64,000 nt of DNA from Escherichia coli. GTDB lineage: Bacteria > Pseudomonadota > Gammaproteobacteria > Enterobacterales > Enterobacteriaceae. The translations under genes were made by a program, and so were the position numbers. The DNA is taken from the NCBI RefSeq assembly GCF_003018115.1, contig NZ_CP027457.1, one strand, 5' to 3'. The notes under the pieces were generated by a model that saw nothing but the letters and a program-made list of their open reading frames with translations, did no database searches and was not told where the DNA came from. How positions within the stretch are numbered: position 1 is the first letter of the stretch; every line of letters begins with the position of its first letter. This document shows, piece by piece, positions 21,684 to 36,006 of this stretch.

Positions 21684-21747
21684 AAGAAAACGCCTGTACT
21701 AAAACCGACCCGTGGTACAGGCGAAGAATACGGGTCTACATCGGAAG
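21684..21747 (-). ncRNA. rydC: RydC small regulatory RNA (Hfq-dependent pseudoknot sRNA)
   Basis: Minus strand reads CTTCCGATGTAGACCCGTATTCTTCGCCTGTACCACGGGTCGGTTTTAGTACAGGCGTTTTCTT (64 nt), which matches my recollection of RydC; lies between cybB and ydcA. Confidence 0.65.
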
Positions 21748-22162: not shown

Positions 22163-22354
<192 letters not shown>

Positions 22355-22370
<16 letters not shown>

Positions 22371-22420
22371 TCGTTGGCCTCGGTTGATAGAAATATCGGT
22401 CGGGGCCTTCGTCTTTCTGA
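22355..22420 (+). ncRNA. sokB: Sok-type antisense RNA to the mokB translation-initiation region (coordinates approximate)
   Basis: Inferred from the hok/sok architecture, where the antitoxin RNA is antisense to the mok start; ends not verifiable from sequence alone. Confidence 0.3.
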
Positions 22421-22644
22421 TTCCCGGTTAGCCTGAAAACAGAAAGTCTCAGGCACCCGCAGGCATCCTATGAGGTTTCCTTAGGGACGAAAATAATCAC
22501 TTCACGAAATTGCGTGCTGTTTTCCAGAATTTTTCGTCATTCGGGTTAGCCAGTTTAGCCATTCGTTACTCTCTTCATTCCAATAGCATTAATTTTCTCT
22601 GCAATAATTGTTGTAAAAATGTGACGCAAAGAGGTTTTTGGTCA

Positions 22645-32377: not shown

Positions 32378-33051
32378 ATGCGTACCACATCATTTGCGAA
32401 AGTTGCAGCTTTATGCGGCTTGTTGGCTCTGTCTGGTTGTGCCTCTAAAATCACCCAGCCAGATAAATATTCTGGTTTTTTAAACAATTACTCTGATTTA
32501 AAAGAAACAACCTCGGCTACAGGTAAACCGGTTTTACGTTGGGTAGACCCGAGTTTTGATCAAAGCAAATATGACAGCATCGTCTGGAACCCAATCACTT
32601 ATTATCCGGTACCGAAACCTTCGACCCAGGTAGGGCAGAAAGTTCTGGATAAAATTTTGAACTATACCAACACCGAAATGAAAGAAGCGATAGCGCAGCG
32701 TAAACCACTGGTTACCACCGCTGGGCCGCGTAGTCTGATTTTCCGTGGGGCCATTACCGGTGTAGATACCAGCAAAGAAGGGCTGCAATTCTATGAAGTG
32801 GTTCCTGTTGCATTAGTGGTTGCGGGGACGCAAATGAAATGGCTACAGGCCACCGTACCATGGATACTCGCCTCTATTTTGAAGGTGAGCTGATTGATGC
32901 AGCGACTAATAAACCGGTTATCAAAGTCGTTCGTCAGGGCGAAGGTAAAGACCTGAATAACGAAAGTACGCCAATGGCTTTCGAAAATATTAAACAAGTT
33001 ATTGATGACATGGCGACCGATGCCACCATGTTTGACGTTAACAAAAAGTAG
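32378..33051 (+). pseudogene. ydcL: lipoprotein gene disrupted by a 5-bp tandem duplication (AAATG AAATG)
   Basis: Signal peptide plus lipobox (LALSGC); frame breaks at 32832-32841, so the ORF track splits it into 32378-32893 and 32839-33051; removing one AAATG copy restores one continuous 222-codon frame. Confidence 0.7.
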
Positions 33052-33068
33052 TTCCAGACGCGCCATCG

Positions 33069-33575
33069 TTAGATGGCGCTTTTTATCCGGTGCGCCGTAA
33101 AACCCCATCCTTCAGGGCGGGGATATAAGGCGCGGTTTTCCACCTGACCAGGTGTTTGCTGTTGTTCAATGTATTGGCGGATGACGGATATTGGCGCACC
33201 TCCGCAGCTACTGGCAAAATAGCCAGGACTCCACAAAACGCCTTTGTAGTAATACCTGACTGCAATATCTGGTCGATCTCGTCGCAGTAACCTACCCGAT
33301 ACGCCTTTGAGGCTGTTTACCAGACTGGATATCGCCAGTTTGGGAGGTTAGTTAATTAACAAATGGACGTGATCTGGTTCGCCATCCATTTCAACCAGTT
33401 CAGCTTCAAAATAAGCACATACATTTGAAAAGTAAGTGTGTAGTTTTTCTGTCGCGTCATGGTCAAAAATCTGGCGTCGGTATCTGGTGACAAAGACCAG
33501 GTGAACATGCATCAGGAAAACACAATGCCTTCCACGCCGGATATCGGTTTCTTTTTTCACAGACCAAAGTATCAT
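33069..33575 (-). pseudogene. tnpA: IS200-type HuH single-strand transposase TnpA interrupted by an in-frame TAA
   Basis: Minus strand reads ...MHVHLVFVTRYRRQIF...EPDHVHLLIN*PPKLAISSLVNSLKGVSGRLL...LWSPGYFASSCGGAPISVIRQYIEQQ...; HuH motif lies before and the catalytic-Tyr region after the stop at 33348-33350. Confidence 0.7.
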
Positions 33576-33582
33576 TTGACCT

Positions 33583-34791
33583 GTGAAACGATTACAGGCA
33601 TTTAAATTCCAGTTAAGACCAGGTGGTCAACAGAAGTGTGAAATGAGGCGCTTCGCAGGCGCATGTCGTTTCGTTTTCAATCGTGCTCTGGCACGTCAGA
33701 ATGAGAATCATGAGGCCGGTAATAAATACATCCCTTACGGGAAAATGGCTTCCTGGCTGGTTGAGTGGAAAAATGCCACTGAAACGCAATGGCTTAAAGA
33801 TTCTCCCTCACAGCCATTGCAACAGTCACTGAAAGACCTTGAGCGGGCTTACAAAAACTTCTTCCGGAAGCGGGCTGCTTTTCCCCGATTCAAAAAGCGG
33901 GGACAGAATGATGCATTCCGCTACCCGCAGGGCGTTAAGCTCGATCAGGAAAACAGCCGTATTTTTCTGCCGAAACTGGGCTGGATGCGCTACCGGAATA
34001 GCCGTCAGGTCACGGGTGTTGTGAAAAATGTCACTGTCAGCCAGTCCTGCGGTAAGTGGTACATCAGTATTCAGACAGAAAGTGAAGTATCAACTCCGGT
34101 TCACCCTTCAGCATCAATGATCGGGCTGGATGCTGGCGTGGCTAAACTCGCCACGCTGTCAGATGGCACAGTCTTTGAGCCTGTAAACAGTTTTCAGAAA
34201 AACCAGAAGACGCTGGCGAGACTTCAGCGACAGTTAAGCCGCAAGGTCAAATTCAGCAACAACTGGCAGAAGCAGAAACGCAAAATACAGCGACTGCATT
34301 CCTGTATCGCAAATATCCGCAGGGACTACCTTCACAAAGTCACAACGGCCGTCAGCAAAAACCACGCAATGATAGTCATTGAGGATTTGAAGGTCAGCAA
34401 CATGTCAAAGTCAGCAGCGGGTACGGTCAGCCAGCCGGGGCGCAATGTCCGGGCAAAATCAGGTTTAAACCGTTCGATACTGGATCAGGGCTGGTATGAA
34501 ATGCGCCGCCAGCTTGAGTACAAGCAGCTCTGGCGTGGCGGTCAGGTGCTTGCTGTTCCGCCAGCGTATACAAGCCAGCGTTGCGCGTACTGTGGTCATA
34601 CAGCGAAAGAGAACCGCCTGTCACAAAGTAAATTCAGATGCCATGTATGTGGATATACAGCGAACGCCGATGTAAATGGCGCTCGTAACATTTTAGCGGC
34701 GGGGCACGCCGTTCTTGCCTGTGGAGAGATGGTGCAGTCAGGCCGCCCGTTGAAGCAGGAACCCACCGAAATGATTCAGGCGACAGCCTGA
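33583..34791 (+). CDS. insQ: TnpB (IS605 OrfB family) RuvC-like RNA-guided-nuclease-type transposon protein
   Basis: 402-aa ORF; RuvC-like motifs ([24 protein letters not shown]) and Zn finger CAYCGH...CHVCGY. Confidence 0.85.
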
Positions 34792-34830
34792 ACGTAGCAG
34801 GGATCCACGTCCTTCAGGGCGTGGAGGATG

Positions 34831-36006
34831 TCAATATCGGTTTCTGTCAGCGATTAAATTCAACACCACGTAACAAACGCCTCCGGCAATTAATCCCCAG
34901 AACGCTGAACCAATCCCGACCAGCGTTAATCCACTTGCCGTTACCAGAAATGCCACCACCGCCGCGTCGCGCTCACGCTCATTATGCAGCGCCTGATACA
35001 AACTGCCGCCAATGGTACTTAACAGCGCCAGACCTGCCAGCATCTGGATCCAACTTACGGGCAGGGCAGCCATCATCCCGGTAATGGCACTACCAAACAG
35101 ACCTGCGAGCAAATAGAAAATGCCTGCAACGGCAGCGGCCAGCCAACGTTGATCTTTATCCGGATGCGCTTCCGGGCTTTGGCAAATAGCTGCGGTGATT
35201 GCCGCAATACCGACGGAATAAACGCCGAAAGGGGAAAAAACCAGTGCCAGCAATCCAGTAAATACAATTAATGGCGAAACAGGAGCCGAATATCCGGCTG
35301 CTTTCATTGCTGCGATACCCGGTGCGTTTTGCGATGCCATCGTCACCAGAAAAAGGGGGAGTGCAACGCTCAGGCTGTGAGCAAACGAAAAATCAGGGGT
35401 AATATAAGTGGGGAGAACGGGTTTAAAGACAACATCAGTTGTGACAACGTCACCTTGCGCGATAACGATCACGATCCCAATAATCATCGCGGCAATTACC
35501 GCATAGCGCGGCGCAACGGCCTTGGTTGCCAGCCATACCAGCAACATACTTCCACACAACGTAAATTGACAGTCCAGACTGGCAAACGCCTGTAAACCAA
35601 AGCGTAATAAAATCCCGGCAAGCATTGCCGCCGCAAGCGAGTGCGGAATAATGCGCATCAGACGAGCAAAGAGTCCCGTTATGCCGCAGAGGACTATTAA
35701 CGCGTTGGTGACAATAAAAACGCCGATGGCTTCGTTAAGTGTTAGTCCCTGCAATCCGGTGACCAACAAAGCCGCGCCAGGCGTTGACCATGCGGTGAGA
35801 ACAGGTACGCGATACCATAATGTCAGAGTCAGCGTACTGACGCCCATTGCCAGCCCCAGCGCCGTCATCCAGCCAGAGATTTGTGCAGTGGAGGCTCCGG
35901 CGACAATCGCTGCTTGCCAGATTATTGCCGCTGAACTGGCGTAGCCAATTAATACCGCCAGAAACCCCGCCAGTAGCGTGGGTGGAGGAACAGAAAACAG
36001 ACGCAT
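34831..36006 (-). CDS. ydcO: BenE-family (benzoate transporter-like) inner membrane protein
   Basis: Internal ATG giving MRLFSVPPPTLLAGFLAVLIGYASSAAI..., 391 aa, polytopic. Confidence 0.85.
   Translation of the reverse strand: MRLFSVPPPTLLAGFLAVLIGYASSAAIIWQAAIVAGASTAQISGWMTALGLAMGVSTLTLTLWYRVPVLTAWSTPGAALLVTGLQGLTLNEAIGVFIVTNALIVLCGITGLFARLMRIIPHSLAAAMLAGILLRFGLQAFASLDCQFTLCGSMLLVWLATKAVAPRYAVIAAMIIGIVIVIAQGDVVTTDVVFKPVLPTYITPDFSFAHSLSVALPLFLVTMASQNAPGIAAMKAAGYSAPVSPLIVFTGLLALVFSPFGVYSVGIAAITAAICQSPEAHPDKDQRWLAAAVAGIFYLLAGLFGSAITGMMAALPVSWIQMLAGLALLSTIGGSLYQALHNERERDAAVVAFLVTASGLTLVGIGSAFWGLIAGGVCYVVLNLIADRNRY

Follow-up and report, generated by a model that had tools for sequence, protein, structure and literature searches.

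A probable IS609 copy at the ydcL-ydcO junction of Escherichia coli, with an inactivated tnpA beside an intact tnpB and a predicted omega-RNA scaffold

The element that separates ydcL from ydcO in the 64,000-nucleotide (nt) stretch of Escherichia coli DNA analysed here (contig NZ_CP027457.1 of assembly GCF_003018115.1; "the window" below means this whole stretch) is most probably a copy of the insertion sequence (IS) IS609, of the IS200/IS605 family, with a dead tnpA and with tnpB and the guide-RNA region intact. We put the probability of this reading at about 85%. The original prediction, made from the letters of the window, had claimed an IS200/IS605-family element carrying an intact TnpB beside a nonsense-interrupted TnpA, and family profiles, structure matches and translations all confirm it. 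That prediction gave no element name; the locus is IS609/insQ and stands as such in RefSeq, where insQ, an "RNA-guided endonuclease InsQ/TnpB family protein", is annotated beside a tnpA pseudogene flagged "internal stop".

The assignment to IS609 rests on near-identity. The intact comparison copy L003, which lies at another locus and whose tnpA is named "IS200/IS605-like element IS609 family transposase" in RefSeq, shares 97.8% nt identity with the window copy (38 of 1753 nt differ), a level that places the latter within IS609 as far as sequence can tell. Locus, organisation and ends are also the same as in the IS609 insP'/insQ of K-12-type strains, and the tnpA alleles differ, being Y76* in the window, L96* in K-12-like copies and E62* in others. 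As far as in silico tests reach, the copy has all the features that define an IS200/IS605 element and a TnpB/omega-RNA unit. The features that delimit the element are as follows.

33060-33079, + strand: intrinsic terminator stem-loop of ydcL, from a terminator scan; host sequence, outside the IS
33083-33086, + strand: TTAT, the target and left cleavage site (CL) and the predicted target-adjacent motif (TAM), in the context TTTAT (33082-33086)
33087-34834, + strand: IS609 copy, 1748 bp, delimited by empty-site comparison and independent insertions
33099-33102, + strand: AAAA, at the left DNA-guide (GL) position as in IS608, directly 5' of the left hairpin foot; read from the sequence
33103-33122, + strand: left subterminal imperfect palindrome (IPL), CCCCATCC-TTCA-GGGCGGGG
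34805-34824, + strand: right subterminal imperfect palindrome (IPR), CCACGTCC-TTCA-GGGCGTGG
34831-34834, + strand: TCAA, the right cleavage site (CR), which closes the IS 10 nt downstream of the IPR foot and marks the point where conservation among relatives ends

The ends could be placed at 33087 and 34834 because the empty site of E. coli Nissle 1917 and two independent insertions agree on them. The Nissle 1917 site reads GCGCTTTTTAT followed by TATCGGTTTCTGT, with the insertion point between the two, and the occupied window reads ...TTTAT, then CCGGTGCG...GGATGTCAA, then TATCGGTTTCTGT. The independent insertions, L003 in a TetR gene and L004 in a DUF3251 gene, have identical ends with TTTAT before each. 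The copy has neither terminal inverted repeats nor a target duplication, and insertion took place 3' of TTAT without duplicating it. The left end directly follows a TTAT in the window copy, in both independent insertions and in the relatives L006, L010, L012, L013, L029, L032, L044 and L046; L011, with TTAC, is the exception. Nissle 1917 has an identical ydcL terminator at its empty site, and the T-run of this terminator provides the target motif. On the other side, the insertion point falls inside the ydcO stop codon: read on the minus strand, the empty allele has ...CGA TAA and the occupied one ...CGA TAT TGA. YdcO gains one Tyr, and its TGA stop (34831-34833, minus strand) comes from the TCAA of the IS. 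The original placement of the element exactly between ydcL and ydcO was right and can be sharpened to this codon. Its proposed span of 33052-34830 had to be corrected at both ends, since 33052-33086 is the ydcL terminator plus TTTAT and the right end lies 4 nt further on (...GTCAA).

IPL and IPR are 86% identical as direct repeats. They have in common the 12-mer TCCTTCAGGGCG, which, with at most one mismatch, occurs at only these two sites in the 64 kb (0.29 expected). The hairpin coordinates and the shared 12-mer had been predicted exactly, and the accompanying view that these are subterminal structures of the TnpA-recognised type is borne out by a hairpin and cleavage-site geometry like that of IS608. 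In IS608, CL (TTAC) lies 19 nt 5' of the left hairpin foot and CR (TCAA) 10 nt 3' of the right one, and a 4-nt DNA guide stands directly 5' of each foot, the left being AAAG (PMC3201880). This Helicobacter pylori element, the mechanistic model of the family, shares with the window copy a Y1 HUH TnpA, subterminal imperfect palindromes on the same strand, insertion 3' of a tetranucleotide that is not duplicated, the TCAA 10 nt 3' of the right hairpin and the 4-nt guide positions. The window copy differs from it in its target (TTAT for TTAC), its left guide (AAAA for AAAG), the distance of its left cleavage site from the hairpin (16 nt against 19) and the orientation of its genes, which are divergent here and co-directional in IS608. 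Relative to TTAC/AAAG, the C-to-T change in the target and the G-to-A change in the guide fall at the same position, so that pairing of AAAA with TTAT would be consistent with the IS608 pairing rule.

The two genes of the element, with the residues that decide their state, are listed below.

33583-34791, + strand: tnpB (insQ), 402 aa, GTG start, intact
34129-34131, 34381-34383 and 34669-34671, + strand: codons of the TnpB RuvC triad D183, E267 and D363, aligned to ISDra2 TnpB
34582-34650, + strand: TnpB zinc finger C334/C337/C353/C356 (CxxC...CxxC)
33575-33069, - strand: tnpA pseudogene, Y1 HUH transposase, from the list of open reading frames and from profile and structure matches
33363-33371, - strand: TnpA HUH motif H69/H71, conserved columns
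33348-33350, - strand: in-frame TAA at tnpA codon 76, Tyr in the intact copy L003
33171-33173, - strand: codon of the TnpA catalytic Tyr135, in RQYIEQQ, a conserved column
33144-33146, - strand: lost natural stop of tnpA, codon 144, CAG where TAG is expected

TnpB matches three Pfam families (HTH_OrfB_IS605, PF12323; OrfB_IS605, PF01385; and the Cas12f1-like_TNB zinc ribbon, PF07282) and the NCBIfam model NF040570 "guided_TnpB", at 379.6 bits against a cut-off of 100. Its best natural relative of solved structure is the TnpB of ISDra2 from Deinococcus radiodurans (8h1j/8exa; E 8e-55 over residues 3-376). D183, E267 and D363 of the window protein fall in the columns of ISDra2 D191, E278 and D361, an alignment that upholds the original claim that the 402-aa protein keeps its RuvC-like catalytic residues and zinc finger. 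D191 is essential in ISDra2 TnpB (PMC8612924). An ortholog 84% identical to the window protein has been studied biochemically: supplementary Table S2 of PMC12781874 includes an IS609 TnpB that was purified and assayed with a TTAT-flanked target.

tnpA, by contrast with the intact reading frame of L003, is disrupted twice. In L003 the protein has 143 aa and ends with a TAG after ...QQQTPG. In the window the frame begins at the ATG 33575-33573, divergent from tnpB and 7 nt from its GTG (33583), is interrupted by the TAA at codon 76, and has lost its natural stop, so that it extends across the left hairpin as far as 33069. The translation with a repaired codon 76 scores 143.7 bits against NCBIfam NF033573 "IS200/IS605 family transposase" (cut-off 55), and it matches the solved IS608 and ISDra2 TnpA structures with E values of 1e-17 to 1e-19. 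Because the TAA comes after the HUH motif but before the catalytic tyrosine, the window tnpA, on its sequence, cannot yield an active enzyme, and the copy should not be able to move on its own; excision or insertion by TnpA in cis is likewise excluded by the nonsense codon. The region between the genes also contains a 14-nt inverted repeat at 33555-33588 (TTTCACAGACCAAA and TTTGACCTGTGAAA, 86% complementary, with a 6-nt spacer) that spans the tnpA ATG and the tnpB GTG and could block either start codon. A -10-like TATCAT (33570-33575) lies 7 nt upstream of the tnpB GTG.

The guide-RNA region was examined by comparing the window copy with its relatives. A protein word-index search returned near-identical E. 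coli proteins only, with no diversity for covariation. IMG/VR viral contigs were used instead and searched with the TnpB protein, which gave 61 loci of 30-97% identity; the last ~165 nt of 29 distinct elements were aligned. The following features are predicted from this alignment or, in the case of the guide, from the ISDra2 rule given below.

34688-34834, + strand: omega-RNA scaffold, ~147 nt, from the 29 aligned relatives, RNAalifold and pair counts
34688-93/34826-31, + strand: helix H1, with one-sided, wobble-compatible changes only
34696-701/34707-12, + strand: helix H2, with changes on both sides
34718-22/34755-59, + strand: helix H3
34726-33/34742-48, + strand: helix H4, with changes on both sides
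34771-81/34786-95, + strand: helix H5/6, spanning the tnpB stop, from per-sequence folds, with changes on both sides
34804-12/34817-25, + strand: helix H7, the right hairpin, with changes on both sides
34835-34850, + strand: 16-nt omega-RNA guide, TATCGGTTTCTGTCAG, in the host flank, antisense to the last ydcO codons

Three lines of evidence indicate that the scaffold is present and untruncated. The first is the end of conservation, which in all 29 relatives stops exactly at ...GGAGGATGTCAA and is lost from the next base. The second is the covarying structure. Its 43 pairs combine the RNAalifold consensus with the stop-codon-spanning hairpin taken from per-sequence folds; 94.9% of the cells are paired, 17 pairs are changed on both sides and none of 500 shuffles did as well, with the caveat that part of the structure derives from the same sequences used to test it. 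When partners were slid by 1-3 columns as a control, 37-49% of the cells paired. The third is synonymous constraint in tnpB, seen in a 24-gene codon alignment: the fraction of synonymous differences, 0.25-0.45 along most of the gene, is only 0.04-0.13 over codons 380-402 (nt ~34720-34791), the kind of drop that an overlapping RNA should produce. Since H2-H6 lie outside the hairpin bound by TnpA, the structure points to an RNA and not to a DNA transposition signal. IPR would then double as the last omega-RNA hairpin, with a UUCA tetraloop. Folded alone, the window sequence has z = -1.8, which is unconvincing by itself. The original prediction had put the omega-RNA at about 34650-34830, where it would span the 3' end of tnpB and the right end; that location holds, with the coordinates refined to a predicted scaffold at 34688-34834 and a guide at 34835-34850. 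It had also named a truncated right end without the scaffold as the result that would speak against it. The right end is of full length instead and has the same TCAA end as the relatives.

No Rfam family reached its gathering threshold within the element. Below threshold, HgcC (RF00062) matched 34728-34844 at 22.2 bits (threshold 50), sot0042 (RF02656) matched 34664-34825 at 17.0 bits (threshold 88) and RAGATH-18 (RF03064) matched 34718-34761 at 25.4 bits (threshold 44.9), this last match coinciding with H3/H4. In PMC4615843, a 2015 study that mined RNA-seq data, HgcC and sot0042 RNAs are described as overlapping tnpB 3' ends and sharing a hairpin with a UUCA tetraloop, and E. coli K-12 is reported to make transcripts that overlap the 3' end of tnpB. 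The 3' hairpin of the HgcC and sot0042 (sotRNA) models is the part matched by the UUCA right-end hairpin of the window. With scores this far under gathering the window RNA is a member of none of the three families, and the likeness consists of the UUCA hairpin and one internal stem. The RAGATH-18 motif may itself be related to TnpB guide RNAs.

Another parallel is the omega-RNA of ISDra2 (also called reRNA), whose guide is 16 nt long, whose minimal scaffold measures 116 nt and whose tetraloop lies at -20 to -17 (PMC10097598). As in ISDra2, the window RNA would overlap the tnpB 3' end and the right end, carry a terminal tetraloop hairpin ~20 nt before the guide (its loop at -22 to -19, against -20 to -17) and take its guide from the flank. 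The predicted TAM, TTAT, is different from the TTGAT of ISDra2, and the helices that are solved in ISDra2 are in the window predicted from covariation. A pseudoknot of the ISDra2 type could not be assigned in the window RNA, as RNAalifold gave only the nested long-range H1, which has no both-sided changes; H1 is a candidate for its counterpart.

In ISDra2 the ~16 nt that flank the right end serve as the guide (PMC8612924). Applied to the window copy, this rule predicts TATCGGTTTCTGTCAG as the guide and the IS target TTAT as the TAM. The predicted guide is unique in the 64-kb window, and the Nissle 1917 empty allele has TTAT followed by 16 nt that differ from the guide at position 14 only. In the mechanism we propose, TnpB would bind an omega-RNA made of the tnpB 3' end, the right end and the ~16 nt of flank, and the complex would cut TTAT plus the guide sequence, that is, the donor joint or an empty or excised ydcL-ydcO allele (TTAT+TATCGG...). 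The occupied locus would be spared because its flank is preceded by ...GTCAA instead of TTAT. With tnpA dead in cis, such activity would matter only if TnpA came from another IS609 copy or an empty allele entered by recombination. Retention and homing by TnpB have been demonstrated for Geobacillus elements (PMC10055086), and this copy may behave in the same way. An exact 12-nt repeat, ATATCGGTTTCT, occurs at 33541-33552 in the tnpA 5' region and at 34834-34845 across the junction of right end and flank, where it includes the first 11 guide nt. The internal copy was considered as a guide target and rejected; the repeat is probably a chance one (~0.1 expected), and no TTAT/TAM precedes the internal copy.

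We then asked how the two genes have fared at this locus in other strains, comparing 14 ydcL-ydcO copies (the window and 13 others that were fetched). tnpB is intact, at 402 aa, in 14 of 14 and tnpA is dead in all of them through three nonsense alleles: Y76* in three copies (the window, L072 and L073), E62* in four (L066-L069) and L96* in seven, including the K-12-like strain. Some copies also carry a 1-bp or 5-bp deletion in tnpA, and the natural tnpA stop is lost in every one. Y76* was rejected as the ancestral lesion at the locus, since other copies have Tyr there and different stops. All five distinct disabling lesions fall in tnpA (~500 bp) and none in tnpB (1209 bp), a distribution with a chance of ~0.002 under equal rates. 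tnpB has 18 synonymous and 28 nonsynonymous segregating sites (p = 0.0075 against a neutral 22% synonymous), and the 6:16 sites of tnpA, with 3 nonsense sites in addition, are consistent with neutrality (p = 0.50). These counts indicate, on sequence comparison, that tnpA, unlike tnpB, took several independent hits once the insertion had become fixed.

One account of this pattern is that the ydcL-ydcO IS609 is an old fixed insertion that has lost tnpA in at least three lineages (Y76*, E62* and L96*) and whose nuclease and scaffold have been kept by selection. We offer this tentatively and regard it as possible but doubtful. If true, TnpB and its omega-RNA would have a pay-off independent of their own transposase. 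One option would be a homing "drive" that cuts incoming empty alleles (TTAT+TATCGGTTTCTGT(C/T)AG) after recombination or conjugation; others would be a partnership with TnpA in trans or a host-level role.

Several observations weigh against the reading of an IS609 copy whose nuclease and guide-RNA region are intact and maintained. The promoter scan gave no sigma-70-like promoter on the + strand for tnpB or the omega-RNA, and tnpB starts with GTG without an obvious Shine-Dalgarno sequence. The promoter null is uninformative, since TnpB can process its own mRNA into omega-RNA according to PMC10278001. In a comparable assay, no activity was seen for HpyTnpB, which belongs to the related IS608 (PMC10055086). 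Small deviations from consensus are found at both ends and in the scaffold: A33107 creates an A.C mismatch in IPL where L003, L004 and L073 have G, the right guide position holds GGAT (34801-34804) where most relatives have GAAT, and H4 contains an A.C mismatch (34727/34747), where L068 and L069 have regained an A-U pair by having T instead of C at 34747. Among the sampled copies, the pairwise ratio of nonsynonymous to synonymous polymorphism (pN/pS) of tnpB is 0.2-0.6, a moderate constraint only, and a Fisher test finds no significant difference between tnpB and tnpA in their synonymous to nonsynonymous ratios (p = 0.29).

Much of this would also be expected of an inert relic, that is, a decaying element in which TnpB and the omega-RNA are silent or inactive and the tnpB frame owes its integrity to short time or to occasional gene conversion. 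A pN/pS far from strong constraint, the indistinct ratios of the two genes, the GTG start and absent + strand promoter match, and the inactivity of IS608 TnpB in PMC10055086 all fit such a relic, as do the death of tnpA in every sampled ydcL-ydcO copy and the state of tnpB at another locus. There, at the ytfB/TetR locus that also holds L003, two copies have a stop-loss TnpA without nonsense codons, and their tnpB is either shortened to 398 aa (L079) or frameshifted (L080). We nevertheless find a relic unlikely. It has to contend with the absence of disabling tnpB lesions across the three tnpA-allele clades, set against the five in tnpA, and with the synonymous excess that tnpB displays and tnpA does not. 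The K-12-like strain has a single matching place, so no second copy was there to serve for conversion, and neither the catalytic residues nor the scaffold has been lost.

TldR proteins are nuclease-dead. A further rival, which would have TnpB/omega-RNA or the right-end RNA recruited to a host function such as antisense control of ydcO or TldR-like RNA-guided repression, could draw on an insertion that is fixed at a single site in much of E. coli, on the retention of tnpB after repeated tnpA loss, and on a guide antisense to the ydcO 3' end together with an IS-derived ydcO stop codon, but it is very improbable: the loss of RuvC catalytic residues that marks TldR is not seen in the window TnpB, which retains all three, the antisense geometry follows automatically from the landing site of the IS, empty-site strains exist in which ydcO is intact, and no data point to a phenotype.

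The IS609 copy can also be placed within the species. A megablast search with window positions 33000-34900 against 5,426 complete E. coli genomes found full-length IS609 copies in 4,310 of them. Strain F9792 is 100% identical over 33000-34900, and the copy at ydcL-ydcO in a laboratory-derived K-12-like strain is 99.2% identical. Copies at other loci, which are 97.8-98.7% identical to the window IS609, match query positions 83-1836 only, and genomes with an empty site are present too. The ydcL-ydcO site is occupied in 16 of 30 evenly spaced E. coli records; IS609 is fixed at this junction in a large part of the species. According to a survey paper, more than 90% of E. coli genomes carry IS605-group TnpB elements (PMC9956272). 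Since IS609/insQ is annotated in RefSeq, IS605-group TnpB elements have been surveyed and RNAs from the K-12 tnpB 3' end were reported in 2015, the element is already catalogued, and the finding is correct but ordinary and of low interest. Its family is also the one in which the functions of TnpB and the omega-RNA were established.

What the analysis adds for this allele is a set of exact, predicted parameters (the TAM TTAT, the 16-nt guide, the scaffold limits and the helices), and the completeness of the right end is one useful result among them. The repeated loss of tnpA with retention of tnpB at one orthologous locus is one mildly new point that may deserve follow-up; with its natural empty alleles and its repeated tnpA losses, E. 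coli is convenient for asking what TnpB does without a transposase.

L004, in the DUF3251 gene, carries the same Y76* and stop-loss allele as the window even though its locus is another one, a sharing that may point to gene conversion or to mobilisation in trans. The close relatives L006, L010, L011 and L012, on IMG/VR prophage-like contigs, encode a TnpB 93-95% identical to that of the window and have no tnpA: at about 1370-1510 of these loci, TTAT, the left hairpin and ~30 nt lead directly into an ATG-initiated tnpB, and the right end is kept. They resemble the tnpB-only elements of the IS1341 type, whereas the window copy keeps a tnpA remnant.

Two minor observations concern the surrounding DNA. 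A 5-bp tandem duplication in ydcL at 32827-32840 (GCAAATGAAATGG against GCAAATGG) splits the gene into open reading frames at 32378-32893 and 32839-33051; it is found neither in the otherwise identical F9792 nor in the other 13 sampled genomes and represents a frameshift peculiar to this strain or else an error of sequencing. Elsewhere in the window, the RydC small RNA and the sok antitoxin RNA (21684-21747 and 22307-22458, both on the minus strand) pass the Rfam gathering thresholds and are ordinary E. coli features.

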